A DNA stretch of 31,721 nucleotides from Crocinitomicaceae bacterium (GCA_015662935.1 DQTF01000116.1:1-31721); one strand, 5' to 3'. Positions 24,230 through 31,721 are shown, counted from the first letter of the stretch. Notes: generated by a model from the sequence alone, not told the origin. Translations and numbers: made by a program.

Positions 24230-24958
24230 TTATTCAATTACAATTATGGCTTCAACGCGTCTATTTTTCTTTTTGTTCTCTTCATTTATTTCAGGATACC
24301 TTGGTTGTAAGTTAGAGTGGCCAAATGATTTAATTTTGGTGGCGTCAACTCCACGGCGAATAAGGTGCTTTTGAATTCTTTTTGCTCTGTCAAGAGATAA
24401 TTGTTGGCCTGAACCACAACAGACATGACCGTGCAATTGAATCTGAATATAATTAGTTGTGTCTATCAAATCAAACAGTTCTTCTACAATTGGTCTAGAT
24501 TCAGGAAGAAGAATATCTTGATTATTGATAAAGGTCAGATTAAGAACCAAAGTGTCTAGTGTTTTTATTACTTCTGTAATAGGGGGAACGATTCGTTTTT
24601 CAAATACGAGAATCACACATCTGTTTTGTGCAAGGCTCCGAAAAGAAGACACTTCACCAATAATCATTGTTTTTATGGCGGATAATTTATTGATTATCTT
24701 TGATTTAACATGATCTATTCTTCTACTTGCTAATGCTTGGTTGTAAGATTCTGTTCCTGATGTATCTGTGCACCCGATAAGAGTAACTGTTTGTTCAGAA
24801 GAAATAGCATCAATTTTTTGATAGGCTTCCCCATTGCTTTTTATGAGTTCAGAATTCGAATCGTCAACGTTGAAATAAATAAAAATGGAATCGAGTTTTG
24901 TTTGCGAAAAAGAGATGAAAGAAAGAGCAATAATAAAAAAGGAGAGAAGAGTTTTCAT
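24230..24958 (-). CDS. OmpA-like domain protein (two tandem OmpA_C-like domains, no beta-barrel)
   Basis: Signal peptide, then domain 1 GCTD.SG..SYN..LA.RR...NRCV and domain 2 GHVCC...LS..RA....NRRVE. Confidence 0.85.
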   Translation of the reverse strand: MKTLLSFFIIALSFISFSQTKLDSIFIYFNVDDSNSELIKSNGEAYQKIDAISSEQTVTLIGCTDTSGTESYNQALASRRIDHVKSKIINKLSAIKTMIIGEVSSFRSLAQNRCVILVFEKRIVPPITEVIKTLDTLVLNLTFINNQDILLPESRPIVEELFDLIDTTNYIQIQLHGHVCCGSGQQLSLDRAKRIQKHLIRRGVDATKIKSFGHSNLQPRYPEINEENKKKNRRVEAIIVIE

Positions 24959-24965
24959 ATCGTTT

Positions 24966-24991
24966 TAACGAATAAAAAAATAAATGTTACA
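24966..24991 (-). promoter_or_regulatory. Putative ECF-sigma promoter TGTAAC-N15-CGTTA upstream of the ompA-like gene
   Basis: Read on the minus strand in the 37-nt gap before ATG 24958. Confidence 0.45.
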
Positions 24992-24995
24992 CAAT

Positions 24996-25988
24996 TCAGA
25001 ATGTATAATATTTTCTAACGATTTCTTCTCCCAACTTATTCTGCACTGTATATTTTGTGTTCCCTTTACCTCCAGAAGAAGGATGATAAGGATACCATCT
25101 CCACAAAAAACCACCTGCAACAAAGTCTTTTTTCCAAACAGATTTGAATAATGCTTCCAATGAATTCACTTGTGAGTTTTCATCAAAAATTTCATCTGAA
25201 AAATGCACCCAAGGTTTAAACGCTGACCTTTGAATGCTTCGGTAACCAAATTCAGTTAGTAGAATTTTCTTATTCATTAGTTGACTTGTTTTTTCCATTT
25301 TGGCAAGAATGGGTTCCCAACCGTTTTCTAATTCTTTCAAGGTTGGTTTTTGTTTTTTAGAAATCGGAAAATACGCATCGACACCTATATAATCAAGCTC
25401 TTTCCAATGAGGAAATTTCTCGTAATCGTCCCAATTGGCAGCGTATGTTAATTTACCAGTGTAAATTTTTCGAATATCTTTAATCAGTTTCTTCCAAAAC
25501 TTAGGACGCTCTTTCACAAAACGACCTAATTCTGTTCCGACGCAAAAAAGGGCAATATTTTCTTCTTGAGCAATTTTTATGAAAGCAAAAATGTAAGTTC
25601 TATAACTTTGCTCAAAACTTTTCCAATCTCGTTTTTTTCTATAATTAATGTGACCAACATAACGTCCATTAGATTCTCTCACTTGTGGTTTTAGCATCAC
25701 AGAAAAGTTGTTTTCATGCGCTAATTGAACCATTTGACGAACTCCTTTCAAGCGTTCTCCATAATATTCCCAAGGTTGATCGTAAACTAAACGAGCAGAA
25801 TTGGAAGAATCAATGTCGCAAAAAGGCACAATCGAAATCCATTCTGCATCAAGCTGTTGTATCGGTTTTAATTGGTCAAAAACTAACTTTTCTTTGACAG
25901 AAACAATGTTGACTCCTTCTATTCTCTCTTGTGAAAATATAGTTTTTGTCAGGAATAAAATCAGAAAAAAAACAAAAGATTTAGTCAT
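24996..25988 (-). CDS. Glycoside hydrolase family 113-like TIM barrel (secreted)
   Basis: Signal peptide, VMLKPQV, FCVGTEL, LTYAANWD, LDYIGVDAYFP, TEFGYRS, GGFLW.W. Both putative catalytic Glu are present. Confidence 0.8.
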   Translation of the reverse strand: MTKSFVFFLILFLTKTIFSQERIEGVNIVSVKEKLVFDQLKPIQQLDAEWISIVPFCDIDSSNSARLVYDQPWEYYGERLKGVRQMVQLAHENNFSVMLKPQVRESNGRYVGHINYRKKRDWKSFEQSYRTYIFAFIKIAQEENIALFCVGTELGRFVKERPKFWKKLIKDIRKIYTGKLTYAANWDDYEKFPHWKELDYIGVDAYFPISKKQKPTLKELENGWEPILAKMEKTSQLMNKKILLTEFGYRSIQRSAFKPWVHFSDEIFDENSQVNSLEALFKSVWKKDFVAGGFLWRWYPYHPSSGGKGNTKYTVQNKLGEEIVRKYYTF

Positions 25989-26103
25989 GGATTAATTTGG
26001 AGAATGAAGTTAAGTAAAATATTAGACATCTTCAATTTTTTTAATATTCAAATATTTTCCACATTTTAATTATATTTACTCTTCTCAAAACTGAACCTCG
26101 AGA

Positions 26104-28023
26104 TTGAAAGAAACTAAATTTATAGAGCAAAACAAAAAAAAGTGGAATCGCTTTGAAGAACTCTACGAATCTAAATCGAACAATCCGGATGAGTTAAGCG
26201 ACCTTTACATGGACATAACAGATGATTTAAGTTATGCCCAAACATTCTACCGAAGAAGAACCGTCCGCGTCTATTTGAATAAATTAGCGCAAACTGTTTA
26301 TACAGGTGTTCACAAGCAAAAAGGAGAATCAATCCGAAGGTTTTTAGACGTTTGGAAAATTTCTTTGCCACTAGAAATATACCGTTCTCGCAAAAGTTTG
26401 CTTTTTGCTCTAGTTGCTTTTTGTGTGTATGCACTAATTGGAGTTGTTACAACAATGATAGATCCTAATTTCCCAAGAGTTGTAATGGGTGATGGTTATG
26501 TAAACATGACGATTGAGAATATCCAAAATGGGAATCCTCTAAAAGTGTATGAAGATACTGATCAGATGGCGATGTTTGTCAATATTACCACTAACAACAT
26601 GAAAGTTGCGTTCTTGACTTTTTTTGTAGGTTTTTTCTTCACTATTGGCACACACATGATGTTGTTTTACAACGGAGTAATGCTGGGAGCCTTCCAATAT
26701 TTCTTCAAAGCAAAAGGTTTACTAATCACGAGCTTTTTAGGAATTTGGATTCACGGTGCGTTTGAAATATCAGCAATAGTGCTTGCAGGAGGTGCAGGAA
26801 TAACAGCGGGAAATGGTCTGCTTTTCCCCGGAAGTTATACGCGCTTGCAATCCTTACAATTATCTACTAAACGAGGGTTAAAAATAATGATGAGTTTGGT
26901 TCCGTTTATCATTGCGGCAGGTTTTTTAGAAAGTTATGTTACGCATAATTATCAAAACTTGCCTGAATGGTCAAAATGGACGTTGATTTTATTCTCTTTC
27001 GCATTTATTCTCTTCTTCTATGTGTTTTATCCCATTTATGTAGCAAGAAAATACCCGGAGCTGATTGACCGAGAAGAGGTGGGAAATTTTCAGGAAAGAA
27101 AAGGATTCAACTTTCATAAAATCAGAGGTTCAGGAGAAGTTTTGGCTGATTCATTTAGAATGTACAGAACGATTTTTCAAAAACTTTCGCGTGTTTTTAT
27201 CACCATTGTCATTCCTATTATTGCCGTATTGGTAGTGTTGCAAAACAGCAATCATTACGATTTACAAAAAACGCAATATTGGTACGATTGGGCATCTCAG
27301 TTAGAATTTATGATTGGTTATTGCTTCATTAATGGACAAGACTACCTCATCTTTACCATCTGGACTTTTGTGTTTGCATTGATTTTCTCAACGGTGTTTT
27401 GGGCGATGCAATCTACCGATGAAGAATTCTCTTGGAAGCAATTCTTCAACTACCTAAAGAAAAGGTTTTTTGGCATTTGGCTAGCAAATTTATTCTTTGC
27501 GCTAAGTTGCTTACTCTTACCGTGGTATTTTTTGCTCTTTGCCATTTTTCTACTTCCTTTTTTCTTTCTTAATGCGGCAGCAATGGGAATCAGCAATGGG
27601 AAATTTAAAGAAAGATTCAGAAAAGGATTTCGATATAGTAAGCAACATTACGGAAAATCTTTGGTGTTATTGCTCATACTCATTTGCTTAACGGCGATTA
27701 TTCTGCAACCAATTGCCTTGGTTTTTAGCATCCATAATTCTTGGACAAATGAACCAGAAATGCGAGACCTATTAGATATGTTGGCAGATTTTGTCAAAAG
27801 AATTGCAATGATTTACACAGATGATTATATGGTTTGGGCGAATTTTTTCCGACAGTTTGTGTACATCATTTTTATACTTGGACTCTTGCCTTTATTGATT
27901 ATCACAATGGGATTTGGCTATTTTTCTGAAAGAGAAAAAACAGAAGTAATGGGCTTAAGAAATCAGTTCGAAAAATTTGGAAAACGGAGCAATACACAAG
28001 AATCAAAGGTAGATTTTGAGTAA
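26104..28023 (+). CDS. Stage II sporulation protein M (DUF95) domain fused to a second polytopic membrane domain
   Basis: TTG start (MKETKFIEQNKKKW). Motifs TDDLSYAQTFY, I.TNN.KVAFL.F..G, NG.MLGAF, IWIHG.FE, AAGFLESYVT. About 320 further residues with several hydrophobic segments follow. Confidence 0.85.
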   Translation: MKETKFIEQNKKKWNRFEELYESKSNNPDELSDLYMDITDDLSYAQTFYRRRTVRVYLNKLAQTVYTGVHKQKGESIRRFLDVWKISLPLEIYRSRKSLLFALVAFCVYALIGVVTTMIDPNFPRVVMGDGYVNMTIENIQNGNPLKVYEDTDQMAMFVNITTNNMKVAFLTFFVGFFFTIGTHMMLFYNGVMLGAFQYFFKAKGLLITSFLGIWIHGAFEISAIVLAGGAGITAGNGLLFPGSYTRLQSLQLSTKRGLKIMMSLVPFIIAAGFLESYVTHNYQNLPEWSKWTLILFSFAFILFFYVFYPIYVARKYPELIDREEVGNFQERKGFNFHKIRGSGEVLADSFRMYRTIFQKLSRVFITIVIPIIAVLVVLQNSNHYDLQKTQYWYDWASQLEFMIGYCFINGQDYLIFTIWTFVFALIFSTVFWAMQSTDEEFSWKQFFNYLKKRFFGIWLANLFFALSCLLLPWYFLLFAIFLLPFFFLNAAAMGISNGKFKERFRKGFRYSKQHYGKSLVLLLILICLTAIILQPIALVFSIHNSWTNEPEMRDLLDMLADFVKRIAMIYTDDYMVWANFFRQFVYIIFILGLLPLLIITMGFGYFSEREKTEVMGLRNQFEKFGKRSNTQESKVDFE

Positions 28024-28903
28024 ATACCTCTTACATATCGCTTTTATCATCTGTTCTTTCAGTCTGTTAGGACAAAACAAGCCTTTAACAGAAAAAGAAA
28101 AACTGTGGCAGTCTGAAAAGGACTATTTAAAATATCAAAAGAATAGCAAATATGATGGTCCTGAAGATTGGTATGGTGGCTATCCTGCAAACATGGAGAA
28201 TGAAGACTATGTCTCAACAAATTCTGGTGGCGGAAATTCTTCCAAAAACCTCAACTACAATCCACAGCAAATACAAGACGATAGAGATGAAAAAAATGGA
28301 ACCTCTGGAAGTGGCGGTAATTTACAGTTTGATCCAACTGTTGAACGTCCCGACCCATTAGAAATACCAGAAATTGATATTAACCCATTGGATATTGATG
28401 CGCCAGACATTGACTTAAATCTCCCAGATTGGGACTTATCCATCTCTCAGAGCTTTTGGAAAATGTTATTGTTCATCCTCATTTTCGCGGCTGTTTTCAT
28501 CGTTGCTTATTTGATAATCAAGAATAGAAAACCTGGAGAAAAGAAAATTATTGTGGATGTTGAGGATGAATGGAACCCTGAAGTGATTAGCAAAACAGAA
28601 TTAGAATTACGTTTAGAGCAAGCTATTCACGCAGAGAATTACAGAGAATGCATTCGTATTTATTTCACGTTTATACTCAAGGAACTCATTCGCAAAAACT
28701 GGATTCTCTGGAAAAAAGACAAAACCAATCACCACTACGTTATGGAAATGGGGAAGCGAGCCAATGCATTGCAATTTAATGAATGTGTAAGAGTTTACGA
28801 CCTTGTTTGGTACGGTGATTACCAGATTGACAAAGATATTTATGAATTATTGAAACCGACTTTAGAAAGCTACTATAAATCCCTAGACCCAGTTCATGAA
28901 TAA
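28016..28903 (+). CDS. DUF4129-like domain protein (signal peptide, linker, TM, cytoplasmic helical domain)
   Basis: TTG start overlapping the upstream stop. C-terminal AI..ENYRECIRIYF...L....I.W...KTN..Y....F......YDLVWYGDY pattern. Confidence 0.8.
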   Translation: MSKYLLHIAFIICSFSLLGQNKPLTEKEKLWQSEKDYLKYQKNSKYDGPEDWYGGYPANMENEDYVSTNSGGGNSSKNLNYNPQQIQDDRDEKNGTSGSGGNLQFDPTVERPDPLEIPEIDINPLDIDAPDIDLNLPDWDLSISQSFWKMLLFILIFAAVFIVAYLIIKNRKPGEKKIIVDVEDEWNPEVISKTELELRLEQAIHAENYRECIRIYFTFILKELIRKNWILWKKDKTNHHYVMEMGKRANALQFNECVRVYDLVWYGDYQIDKDIYELLKPTLESYYKSLDPVHE

Positions 28904-30605
28904 TCAAACCAAAATAGGATTAGTGGGTGGTATCGTTTTATTAATGGTACTCATGGTTTGGATGTTTTCTTCAGGAGGAGATGCGGATATCGTAAATAAG
29001 AATGGAAGAAAACCTTACATTTCTTCTAACTGGACAAAGAGGTTTGAATTGTATGATAAAAAACCTTTAGGATTGTTTTTATTTACTTCTTTGGCAAAAG
29101 CACACATTGACTCTTCCAGTAAGGTGATGATTGCAAAGAATTGGGGCATTCTTGATTCTCTAATTAACAGTTCTCCCAAAAAGAAAAGCTTTTTATTTGT
29201 CGGGAACAATTTTGGGTTGCTCAATAACGAATTAGAGTTGGTTTTAAATGAGGTCGAAGAAGGAGCCGAATTATTCATTGCGTATAACAATTTAACGGAT
29301 AACGTCCAGGATGAATTATTTGTAAGATCGAGTAATTCTTTTGAATACAATGCTCATGTGAAGATAAAAACCATCAGAAGAAGCTTTCAGATGATTAATC
29401 TGTATCAGAATGACACCGTCGCAACTGACTGGAACACTTTTGGAACAAGTAAAACTTACGGAGCAAAGAAATCACTTTCTAAAATTTTAGGACAAGATAA
29501 TTTCATTCGCATCAATCATGGAAAAGGGAAAATCCATCTTCTTTCGACACCAACGGTATTCTATAATTATCAAGTAAAGAGAATGCTTGGTTATAAATAT
29601 GCTGAATATGCGCTGAACCAAATTCCGAAAAATCAAGACATCATTTTGCTCGAATTGGGAAGGTTGTCCGATGATTTTGGCACTAACAACGATAATTATT
29701 TAGACGATATTGCAGAAGAATTTGGGAAACGTGATGACAGTTACTTAACCTTATTGTTCCAAAACCCAACCTTGTTGAAGGCAATGCTTTTAGCGATTAT
29801 TGGCATTCTCTTATTCGTTATTTTTAGATCCAAAAGAAAACGACCTGTTGTGCCTTATGTCAAAAAGAAAAAAGACATGACACTGGCATTTGCGGAGACG
29901 ATTACCTCTATTTATTATTCAAAAAGGAATCCACATGGACTTTTGCAGGTGCAAAAGAAGAACTTCTACGCAATGGTTCAAAAACATTTTTATTTGGACC
30001 TTAATCGAAAAGACCAAGAAAATGTCCGCAATTCTTTAGCAGAAAAAAGTAATTATAATAGAAAAGATATTGAACAACTAGTTGATTTGTATGATGCAAA
30101 GGAAGAAAATGTGAACGACCAATACGTTGCGAATGTTTTGAGCCAACAGCAAGCGTTTTACAAATCGGTGGGTATTATTTCTGACAAAACCAAAGATAGA
30201 ATTAAAGAACGAGAAACTGTTTACAGAAGATCCATGCTGATTCCGTCTATATTCATTTTAAGTGGTGTGTTTCTATTCTTCTTCGGACTTTATTATTTGG
30301 TTGCGTCTATTGGAATCGGAATAATTTTCTGGCCGGTTGGAGTTATTTTGGTTATTTTAGGAATAATCCGATTGTCTCAACCATTCTTAATTGTAAATGG
30401 GAAAAGTTGGCGATATTATTCTCTCTATGGAAAAAAGAAAGAGTACAATTCAAAAGAGATTACCAATATTGAACTATTAACAGACGGTGCAAAAGTTAAC
30501 TTCGGCACACAAGAAAGACTAATTATTAATTATAAAGAATTAAGCCGCTTCGATCAAAAGCAATTGAAGCAGTTTATTTCTAAACTTCATACACAAGAAT
30601 TATGA
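28896..30605 (+). CDS. DUF4350-like protein with an extra C-terminal TM hairpin and small soluble domain
   Basis: N-terminal TM, W...F...DK.P.G...F, GKGKIHLLSTP..F.NY, TM ILLFVIFRSKRKRP.VP, AF.ETI..IYY. Confidence 0.75.
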   Translation: MNNQTKIGLVGGIVLLMVLMVWMFSSGGDADIVNKNGRKPYISSNWTKRFELYDKKPLGLFLFTSLAKAHIDSSSKVMIAKNWGILDSLINSSPKKKSFLFVGNNFGLLNNELELVLNEVEEGAELFIAYNNLTDNVQDELFVRSSNSFEYNAHVKIKTIRRSFQMINLYQNDTVATDWNTFGTSKTYGAKKSLSKILGQDNFIRINHGKGKIHLLSTPTVFYNYQVKRMLGYKYAEYALNQIPKNQDIILLELGRLSDDFGTNNDNYLDDIAEEFGKRDDSYLTLLFQNPTLLKAMLLAIIGILLFVIFRSKRKRPVVPYVKKKKDMTLAFAETITSIYYSKRNPHGLLQVQKKNFYAMVQKHFYLDLNRKDQENVRNSLAEKSNYNRKDIEQLVDLYDAKEENVNDQYVANVLSQQQAFYKSVGIISDKTKDRIKERETVYRRSMLIPSIFILSGVFLFFFGLYYLVASIGIGIIFWPVGVILVILGIIRLSQPFLIVNGKSWRYYSLYGKKKEYNSKEITNIELLTDGAKVNFGTQERLIINYKELSRFDQKQLKQFISKLHTQEL

Positions 30606-31720
30606 GTACATCCAATGAAGAAAACTACATGCCTAAAGAAGGCAATGAAGGCGCAAATTCTCCAGAAGAGAATGTAAACGCAACAAATGAAACACCCAAT
30701 TCTGAAGAAAATCAAGCAAGTGTTGAGCCAAGTTCTGGAACACCAAATTATGGTTTTGAACGTCAGAATACAGAATTAATTTGGGTTTCTCAAAAGGTAA
30801 GTGAGGTCAGAACAGAACTCGGAAAATACATTATTGGTCAAACAGAAATGGTTGATTTACTAATGACAGGGATATTCTCCAACGGTCATATTTTGTTAGA
30901 AGGAGTTCCTGGAGTAGCAAAAACACTGTCTGCAAAAGTGCTTTCAAGATCACTGAATGTAGAGTTTAGCAGAATTCAGTTTACGCCAGATATGATGCCT
31001 TCCGACGTTATAGGAACATCTGTTTTTAATTCAAAGGAAGCAACGTTCTCTTTTAGAAAAGGGCCTATTTTTTCTAATATAGTTTTGATTGATGAAATTA
31101 ATCGAGCACCAGCAAAAACACAAGCTGCATTGTTTGAGGTAATGGAAGAACGTCAAATTACTTACGACGGAACGCGTTATCCAATGACTTTTCCTTTTAT
31201 TGTAATTGCTACGCAAAACCCAATAGAGCAAGAGGGAACTTATAACTTGCCTGAAGCACAATTGGATAGGTTTTTATTTAAAATCAAGTTGGATTATCCA
31301 GAATTGCATGAAGAAGAAGAGATATTGCAACGTTATAAAAATGAGATTAAATCACCTACCTTAGAAGATGTTAAAGCGGTTTTCTCCGCAGATGAAATAG
31401 CAAAAATTCAAACGGCTGTCGGGAAGGTAATTGTTGAAGATAATTTGGTGAAGTACATTGCGGCAATAACGCATAAGACTAGAAATCACGGTAAAATATA
31501 TTTGGGAGGTTCTCCAAGAGCATCTTTGTCAATTATTAAATCTTCAAAAGCAATGGCAGCAATCAGAGGTCGTGATTTTGTCACTCCTGAAGACATTCAG
31601 TTTGTTGCGGTACACGTGTTGAATCACCGTTTAATTATGACACCAGAAGCAGAAATGGAAGGTGTTTCAGCAGAAGACGTAGTGGCAGAGATTTTAAAAA
31701 CAATAGAAGTCCCAAGATAG
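30602..31720 (+). CDS. MoxR family AAA+ ATPase
   Basis: LLEGVPGVAKT, RIQFTPDMMPSD, LIDEINRAPAKTQ, ATQNPIEQEGTY.LPEAQLDRF, GSPRAS. ATGA overlap with the upstream gene. Confidence 0.96.
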   Translation: MSTSNEENYMPKEGNEGANSPEENVNATNETPNSEENQASVEPSSGTPNYGFERQNTELIWVSQKVSEVRTELGKYIIGQTEMVDLLMTGIFSNGHILLEGVPGVAKTLSAKVLSRSLNVEFSRIQFTPDMMPSDVIGTSVFNSKEATFSFRKGPIFSNIVLIDEINRAPAKTQAALFEVMEERQITYDGTRYPMTFPFIVIATQNPIEQEGTYNLPEAQLDRFLFKIKLDYPELHEEEEILQRYKNEIKSPTLEDVKAVFSADEIAKIQTAVGKVIVEDNLVKYIAAITHKTRNHGKIYLGGSPRASLSIIKSSKAMAAIRGRDFVTPEDIQFVAVHVLNHRLIMTPEAEMEGVSAEDVVAEILKTIEVPR

Positions 31721-31721
31721 G

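Follow-up and report, generated by a model that had tools for sequence, protein, structure and literature searches.

Positions 26104-31720 of a 31,721-nucleotide stretch of Crocinitomicaceae bacterium DNA (GCA_015662935.1, DQTF01000116.1; the whole stretch is called the window here) carry four genes of a system that we propose comprises six proteins from seven families: an RDD protein, a SpoIIM protein fused to a UPF0259-like protein, a DUF4129 protein, a DUF4350 protein with a predicted GIFT fold, a MoxR AAA+ ATPase, and a DUF58/vWA protein. These components are inherited together, lie next to one another, are translationally coupled, and are sometimes fused; they very probably function together as one inner-membrane system, whose physical assembly we infer. 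That MoxR and DUF58 remodel or assemble the membrane core is a more tentative proposal, drawn from family knowledge and predicted topology, to which we give somewhat less than an even chance; for the best explanation overall, a blend of the one-system claim and the remodelling mechanism, we estimate a probability of roughly 0.55. The window is the entire contig C10 of a Fluviicola-like metagenome-assembled genome (MAG) that is 72.8% complete in 268 contigs. The nearest named relatives of this MAG are Fluviicola and Crocinitomicaceae MAGs, and matching DNA is present in hydrothermal-vent metagenomes (six runs, either DNA contigs or of unrecorded kind, with no RNA run among those listed).

All four genes lie on the plus strand. 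In the open reading frame listing, gene 1 (26104-28023, 639 amino acids, TTG start) encodes the SpoIIM-domain fusion, gene 2 (28016-28903, 295 amino acids, TTG start) the DUF4129 protein, gene 3 (28896-30605, 569 amino acids, ATG start) the DUF4350 protein, and gene 4 (30602-31720, 372 amino acids, ATG start) the MoxR AAA+ ATPase. Read directly at the junctions, genes 1 and 2 overlap by 8 nucleotides (TTGAGTAA), genes 2 and 3 also by 8 (ATGAATAA), and genes 3 and 4 by 4 (ATGA); the listing and the junctions thus bear out the first-pass annotation of this DNA, which had described four genes overlapping by 8, 8, and 4 nucleotides. Both TTG starts are credible because orthologues align from residue 1, and no terminator-like site above chance level was found inside the four-gene run.

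The same annotation had predicted a DUF58/vWA partner near MoxR, and one is present on another contig of the MAG, C241 (L005:44-1375). It encodes 443 amino acids, opens 1 nucleotide past the MoxR stop codon, matches DUF58 at 74.9 bits together with a weak VWA_2 match, and is 77% identical to the gene that follows MoxR in a same-genus relative; DUF58 lies directly downstream of MoxR in all six of the relatives first examined. The first 43 nucleotides of C241 (L005:1-43) repeat the window end (31677-31721) save for one G indel, and the break between C10 and C241 at this one-G length difference probably reflects a fault of assembly by which the operon was split. In runs X1 and X2, which may be the source sample, Logan contigs extend about 5 kb beyond the window end. 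A 436 amino acid PAP2-superfamily gene (L005:1378-2688) starts 2 nucleotides past the DUF58 stop codon; since the loci of relatives have no counterpart after DUF58, this gene seems to have been added to the operon tail in this genome specifically. An RDD neighbour had also been predicted. RDD is indeed the usual divergent neighbour in other lineages, but here it is retained and yet unlinked: the sole RDD gene found in the genome lies on contig C158, is truncated where that contig stops, and along all of its visible length shares 48-49% identity with cluster-linked RDD genes from related genera, and the RDD component has therefore been kept but separated from the others. The place of RDD in other lineages is here occupied by GH113 glycoside hydrolase and OmpA-family genes (24230-25988, minus strand).

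The order SpoIIM-DUF4129-DUF4350-MoxR-DUF58 was found in 6/6 relatives, which represent at least three families: four share the genus, and the other two belong to different families within the order. Across the phylum, we drew 120 Bacteroidota genomes of at least 90% completeness, representing 75 genera. The DUF4350 type occurs in 41 of them, and searches with the SpoIIM profile and with the profile of the 443 amino acid DUF58 protein each recovered precisely this set of 41, at a single copy per genome, and none of the other 79; the carriers span 28 of the 75 genera. Co-occurrence is not a formal statistic here because the genomes are mutually related. In G064, G100, G068, G106, G042, and G069 a component is unlinked, yet none has been lost from these genomes. 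When loci were anchored on DUF4350, SpoIIM and DUF4129 adjoined it in 19/20, MoxR was also present in 17/20, and a recognisable DUF58 gene followed MoxR in 16 of those 17. The canonical layout is a divergent RDD gene and then SpoIIM-TM2-DUF4129-DUF4350-MoxR-DUF58, where TM2 is the second membrane domain described below. Anchoring on DUF58 instead gave 80 named loci, all from Bacteroidota, 52 of which had enough flank to be scored: 37 carried the full set (among them Mucilaginibacter, Spirosoma fluviale, Rufibacter roseolus, and Dysgonamonadaceae), two had DUF4350 and MoxR, two had MoxR only, and 11 had none, DUF58 standing alone in these (Saprospira/Saprospiraceae and Lewinellaceae). The earlier statement that the cluster recurs in conserved form thus stands for Bacteroidota, where co-occurrence in the sample is complete, whereas its spread across phyla rests on published comparisons (PMC8191103, PMC5898192). 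Several Cytophagales-like loci have an M19 membrane dipeptidase gene between the divergent RDD and SpoIIM genes (L077:3933-5186, L114:3760-5001, and L034:5563-6810), and in the loci with this insertion a protein of about 1140 amino acids with a type IX secretion system sorting signal is encoded after DUF58.

SpoIIM and TM2 are fused throughout the order to which the window belongs. One metagenomic contig (L134) encodes an 880 amino acid SpoIIM-TM2-DUF4129 protein and another (L028) a 641 amino acid DUF4129-DUF4350 protein, each within an otherwise normal cluster. As read from these sequences, the three fusions appear to chain all four membrane components (SpoIIM, TM2, DUF4129, and DUF4350), and the natural occurrence of such fusions speaks for a physical complex with 1:1 stoichiometry; they also fit the predicted topology, in which every joined terminus is cytoplasmic. 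That the genes are unrelated chance neighbours, or that they make up a ternary MoxR-vWA system for phage defence or conflict, is highly improbable. The 41/41 versus 0/79 co-occurrence and the fusions together exclude chance adjacency. A role in defence would be in keeping with the fast evolution of the periplasm-exposed parts and with the weak similarity of the ATPase to bpMoxR (44.9 bits) and to DolB/IetA (E 1.6e-12 and 1e-07), but the bpMoxR score compares with 210 bits for AAA_3, and no beta-propeller or effector partner is present. The other four proteins gave no PADLOC match, and the genes occur in a single copy per genome, in an order that is stable across classes; they include no effector domain and do not lie among mobile elements.

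Gene 1 is a two-part fusion of SpoIIM with a UPF0259/DUF7847-like protein rather than a long SpoIIM. Its N-terminal half (26104-27105), assigned from Pfam and an AlphaFold2 (AF2) model, consists of a cytoplasmic helical bundle followed by a six-helix SpoIIM domain. Pfam SpoIIM (PF01944) matched residues 102-280 at 125.8 bits against a cut-off of 26.9 (E 2e-36), covering 162 of the 163 profile positions; the bundle occupies about residues 1-98, and Pfam DUF8413 was found on orthologues. The AF2 model (predicted local distance difference test, pLDDT, 89.1; predicted template modelling score, pTM, 0.79) is all-helical: the bundle (residues 1-94 in the model) leads into the six helices of SpoIIM, and a linker then connects these to roughly six more. 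Compared by Foldseek with AFDB Swiss-Prot, where both sides are predicted structures, it matched Bacillus subtilis SpoIIM (P37873; probability 1.00, TM-score by hit 0.67, residues 92-285) and the archaeal proteins MJ0706 and MJ0793 (TM-score by hit 0.67-0.72), these SpoIIM matches together covering residues 72-286. VIA-align matches for residues 1-75 were generic helical bundles. By its Pfam score, the SpoIIM part is a true member of the SpoIIM family, and by these models it shares the fold of B. subtilis SpoIIM. In the phylum-wide alignment it has a mean column identity of 60%, the highest among the membrane components; its invariant polar residues are N164, N165, N190, H217, E221, R247, E276, and T280, most of which fall within modelled membrane helices, and the periplasmic loop between its first two transmembrane helices is also conserved (G129, Y132, V133, N134, T136, P145, V148, and Y149).

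Membership of the SpoIIM family invites comparison with the SpoIID-SpoIIM-SpoIIP engulfment complex of B. subtilis, in which case the cluster could encode a scaffold that recruits cell-wall hydrolases for vegetative peptidoglycan or envelope remodelling. The family and fold, the conserved periplasmic loop, and the co-purification of Mycobacterium tuberculosis SpoIIM and RDD homologues with the divisome-associated Rv0954 (PMC8093794) are all consistent with such a scaffold, and contig C63 of the MAG carries a gene with a SpoIID domain. We nevertheless consider it distinctly improbable: no SpoIID, SpoIIP, or amidase gene was found in or beside the cluster at any examined locus, SpoIIP was not found in the 72.8%-complete genome, and the C63 gene says little because SpoIID domains also match in non-sporulating control genomes. 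The likeness to the B. subtilis complex is thus confined to the SpoIIM membrane domain, and the differences are several: there is no sporulation here, SpoIID is unlinked, the protein has in addition a cytoplasmic bundle at its N-terminus and, by fusion, a second membrane domain, and its partners are MoxR and DUF58 instead of autolysins.

The C-terminal half of gene 1 (27106-28023, residues 335-639) is the second polytopic domain, TM2, with about six transmembrane helices. A direct Pfam scan of this half gave no match at E ≤ 0.1. SpoIIM genes of other orders are only about 320 codons long, and the gene after them separately encodes a membrane protein of about 300 amino acids that carries PF06790/PF25231 (UPF0259/DUF7847), and hhalign joined the fused C-terminal halves to these stand-alone proteins with a probability of 99.6% (E 1.4e-23, 263 columns); neither of the two profiles is related to SpoIIM by the same method. 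When short proteins related to the C-terminal half alone were sought, close fragments were all that came up, and the split form surfaced through gene neighbourhoods. Foldseek paired residues 333-612 with HI_0825 (probability 0.99, predicted structures). TM2 is poorly conserved, its 13-17% identity being the lowest of the components. The first-pass description of gene 1 as a very hydrophobic SpoIIM-domain protein covers the half that scores 125.8 bits; the second half is a fused UPF0259/DUF7847-like protein.

The topologies of genes 2 and 3 and of DUF58 were taken from hydropathy and the positive-inside rule; on this basis, gene 3 has a transmembrane helix at residues 7-25, a periplasmic GIFT/GATase1-like domain at about 60-255, a second transmembrane helix at 292-310, and a cytoplasmic helical domain at 328-440. 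Residues 441-569 (30220-30605) form a lineage-specific extension of two transmembrane helices and a tail of about 75 amino acids, with a weak DUF6560 match; the 550-571 amino acid form occurs in Crocinitomicaceae-like loci only, whereas proteins from other orders end at about 390-445 amino acids. The protein itself scores 18.5 bits against PF14258 (DUF4350), under the curated cut-off of 30.4, but relatives detected by phmmer lie above it (P0177, 50.1 bits; P0181, 40.3 bits; P0178, 35 bits), and the DUF4350 label appears to hold at the level of orthologues. Relatives at E ≤ 0.001 fall into 2497 representative clusters. The AF2 model (pLDDT 84.9) matched the trimerisation domain of GH42 beta-galactosidase, STM1381, the GIFT domain of IFT52, and ThuA in Foldseek (E 1e-4 to 3e-3), so that the periplasmic domain is modelled as a GIFT/GATase1-like fold flanked by transmembrane anchors, in agreement with what Makarova et al. 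2015 obtained by HHpred for DUF4350 (PMC5898192). Catalysis by this domain is unlikely because the conserved columns hold no Cys or His; overall conservation is 26%. At window position 30458, a third codon position (gene 3 residue 521), the Logan contigs of runs X1 and X2 have T rather than G; strains may vary here, or else the assemblies differ. The MAG also has a second, canonical DUF4350 gene (75.5 bits) at the end of contig C16 (genome G000, L129:2746-7054), preceded by genes for a 650 amino acid Ig-like (Big_3_5) protein and a 578 amino acid TPR protein; these may belong to a different DUF4350 system.

Genes 1 and 3 together bear on the alternative that transport, channel activity, or secretion is carried out by the membrane core itself, with MoxR and DUF58 energising or gating transport. 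Secretion or membrane remodelling has been proposed by Makarova et al. 2015 (PMC5898192). Invariant polar residues of SpoIIM lie in modelled transmembrane helices (N164, N165, N190, H217, E221, E276, and T280), and gene 3 shares with GldG-type ABC-transporter auxiliaries both fold matches and the arrangement of a GIFT domain between transmembrane helices, its paralogue adding weak ABC_transp_aux and IFT52_GIFT matches. The best structural matches of TM2 in VIA-align were to choline-transporter-like CTL1/Pns1 and to CysZ (over about 200-230 residues), but these are leads only, as their Z values (10.3-12.3) fall within what helical bundles attain by chance according to the tool's documentation. 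Foldseek against the PDB found no solved relative of gene 1 and no solved transporter related to the whole protein; the 13-17% identity of TM2 would be unusual for a substrate-specific transporter; and no conserved cargo gene was seen beside the cluster in the examined loci. MoxR ATPases are not known to drive transport. Taking both sides into account, a transport device is an unlikely explanation, although it ranks ahead of the other alternatives.

Gene 2 begins with a signal peptide or anchor (residues 1-19), continues with a variable, low-complexity periplasmic stretch (20-149) and a transmembrane helix (150-168), and ends with the DUF4129 domain (169-295). As with gene 3, its own score against the family (PF13559, 18.3 bits) is under the curated cut-off (24.8), but at E ≤ 0.01 the family is matched by 41 of its 52 orthologues (best E 9.4e-13) and the DUF4129 fusion protein P0178 scores 32.9 bits, so the label appears to hold for the orthologous group. 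Conservation is confined to the C-terminal domain and averages 18%. This domain is predicted to be cytoplasmic because it is preceded by a single transmembrane helix and then a Lys/Arg-rich segment. Genes 2 and 3 had been described in the first-pass annotation as two membrane-anchored proteins with large extracytoplasmic parts; this fits the DUF4350 protein, with its folded periplasmic domain, but not the predicted cytoplasmic position of the DUF4129 domain.

Zhang and Aravind 2012 proposed that operons combining MoxR, a vWA (DUF58) protein, and a YebA/TgpA-type transglutaminase degrade proteins at the membrane (PMC3495828), and membrane-proximal degradation or quality control could be extended to the present cluster. 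The two kinds of operon have in common the MoxR-DUF58 pair and the DUF4129 domain, PF13559 matches occur in B. subtilis and other control genomes, and an M19 dipeptidase gene is inserted in several Cytophagales loci. Against this, that gene is lineage-specific, no conserved component contains a transglutaminase or other peptidase domain, and we regard the model as improbable for this cluster. In its Pfam description, DUF4129 is the C-terminal part of TgpA/YebA-type proteins, and the B. subtilis yeaC-yeaD-yebA operon resembles the cluster in pairing MoxR and DUF58 with a membrane protein that ends in DUF4129. Pseudomonas aeruginosa tgpA (PA2873) is reportedly essential. The differences are that DUF4129 is here on a small bitopic protein, that the transglutaminase core is absent (no match in the cluster proteins at E ≤ 0.1 in Pfam), and that four more membrane families are present (SpoIIM, UPF0259-like, DUF4350, and RDD).

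The identification of gene 4 as a MoxR AAA+ ATPase was correct, judged by family scores (AAA_3, 210.1 bits; AAA_lid_2, 84.2 bits) and intact catalytic motifs: Walker A, GVPGVAKT, at residues 101-108; Walker B, IVLIDE, at 160-165; and sensor-1, TQN, at 204-206. Its closest solved structure is 2R44_A (E 3.6e-89). Residues 1 to about 60 (30602-30790) form a low-complexity N-terminal extension rich in Asn, Glu, Ser, and Pro, which varies in length among same-genus relatives (proteins of 379-407 amino acids) and is absent in other orders (320-345 amino acids). The DUF58 protein has a predicted N-terminal transmembrane hairpin and an Ig-like plus vWA-like body, and because of the hairpin the body is predicted to be cytoplasmic, beside MoxR. 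Its conservation is 54%, and no solved relative was found by sequence search. NCBIfam gave no name for any of the three membrane proteins (genes 1-3), and a feature search in a protein atlas gave leads only.

MoxR-vWA pairs are treated as a chaperone/adaptor module (PMC5898192, PMC3495828), and the mechanism that we propose extends this to a fixed set of membrane partners. The RDD, SpoIIM::TM2, DUF4129, and DUF4350 proteins would form a stoichiometric membrane core. Three domains would be exposed on its cytoplasmic face (the N-terminal bundle of SpoIIM, DUF4129, and the helical domain of the DUF4350 protein), whereas its periplasmic face would have one folded domain, the GIFT-like one. DUF58, tethered by its transmembrane hairpin, would dock a MoxR hexamer onto the cytoplasmic domains, and ATP hydrolysis would then assemble or remodel the core and switch its state, such that cytoplasmic energy controls a membrane or periplasmic activity. 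Action of MoxR-DUF58 on the core and the existence of an envelope substrate are inferred in this scheme, as is the link between a cytoplasmic unfoldase and periplasmic or envelope substrates that the first-pass annotation had put forward. A complex prediction for the DUF4129 domain (residues 169-295) with the cytoplasmic part of DUF58 (residues 58-443) scored 0.19 against a mark of 0.32 and was used neither way.

Several points weigh against remodelling of a single co-functioning core by MoxR-DUF58. The MIDAS motif (metal ion-dependent adhesion site) of DUF58, DxSxS, is DKSRS at residues 245-249 in the genus of the window but DxGRV in most orthologues across the phylum, and this degeneracy makes classical metal-dependent substrate capture doubtful. 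The co-occurring genomes are related and hence non-independent, so that complete co-occurrence overstates its statistical weight. DUF58 is unlinked in 11/52 loci, and adjacency is therefore not obligatory. The L134 and L028 fusions, each seen on a single contig, could be frame errors. Finally, the literature search found no experiment on any member of the cluster.

That search likewise found no paper assigning a function to the cluster, in line with its earlier description as functionally unassigned. The cluster is not new, however, being already visible in the comparative-genomics literature. In mycobacteria, Rv3689-Rv3695 comprise DUF4350 (Rv3691), MoxR (Rv3692, moxR2), DUF58 (Rv3693), SpoIIM (Rv3694c), and RDD (Rv3695) together with further membrane proteins, and genes of this type change expression together in the M. 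chelonae transcriptome (PMC8191103). By annotation alone, this is the same set of families, in the M. chelonae and M. abscessus orthologues too, but it is from another phylum and differs in gene orientation; moreover, SpoIIM is unfused and RDD adjacent there, whereas here SpoIIM is fused and RDD unlinked. In archaea, DUF4350 (arCOG01314)-MoxR-vWA operons were predicted, in the purely computational work of Makarova, Galperin and Koonin 2015, to encode a secretion or membrane-remodelling complex, and bacterial SpoIIM homologues beside a vWA protein and a COG0714 ATPase were remarked upon in the same paper (PMC5898192). The archaeal operons share with ours a vWA protein, a MoxR of COG0714, and a DUF4350 protein whose extracytoplasmic domain is GldG/flavodoxin-like; they add S-layer and Ig-like proteins and have no SpoIIM, DUF4129, or RDD, and their vWA protein is treated as secreted, whereas the DUF58 body here is predicted to be cytoplasmic behind its transmembrane hairpin. 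The Fluviicola-like copy is a lineage variant characterised by the SpoIIM-TM2 fusion, the extended DUF4350 protein, and the unlinked RDD.

The Bat operon (MoxR-DUF58-BatA-BatB-BatC-BatD-BatE), studied in Bacteroides fragilis, Riemerella anatipestifer, and Francisella tularensis (PMC11834572), is also similar in having an MRP-type MoxR followed by DUF58 and membrane-anchored partners, but the Bat vWA-transmembrane and TPR partners (BatA/BatB and BatC) are absent from this cluster. Contig C59 of the MAG (L002, L003, and L006) carries a second MoxR gene, 50% identical to gene 4, followed by a 288 amino acid DUF58 frame and a further DUF58/vWA-like frame; it is a separate, paralogous locus and probably a Bat-type aerotolerance operon. 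A further DUF58 frame, of 321 amino acids, is on contig C202. The R. anatipestifer MoxR study was rejected as work on the present cluster, as it concerns the Bat operon (PMC11834572), and the SigF-regulated MoxR/DUF58 genes MSMEG_6606-6612 could not be tied to it and were not used.

Upstream of gene 1 is a 115-nucleotide divergent intergenic region, across which the divergent gene is the GH113 one. Within it, a candidate Bacteroidota -7-like promoter box, TATATTTA (26071-26078, plus strand), as read from the sequence, lies 25 nucleotides before the gene 1 start; a generic sigma-70 promoter scan upstream of gene 1 gave matches at chance level only.

MoxR-vWA pairs, for which few clients have so far been identified, rank with the AAA+ modules of widest distribution. 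This cluster supplies such a pair with fixed, co-inherited membrane partners, never found apart in the 120 sampled genomes. Added here are the fusions, a topology map of the domains that MoxR could reach, and the observation that the system survives the unlinking of RDD and, elsewhere, of DUF58. With its strong conservation and its invariant Asn, His, Glu, and Thr residues within membrane helices, the SpoIIM-type core may itself act as an enzyme or transporter inside the membrane, its state being controlled by a MoxR-DUF58 motor tethered there; we think this unlikely at present, but if true, it would represent an undescribed class of AAA+-controlled envelope machine in many phyla, mycobacteria included. 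Because the set is widespread and co-inherited, a function for it would annotate thousands of genes now called hypothetical and would explain the role of SpoIIM-family proteins apart from sporulation.

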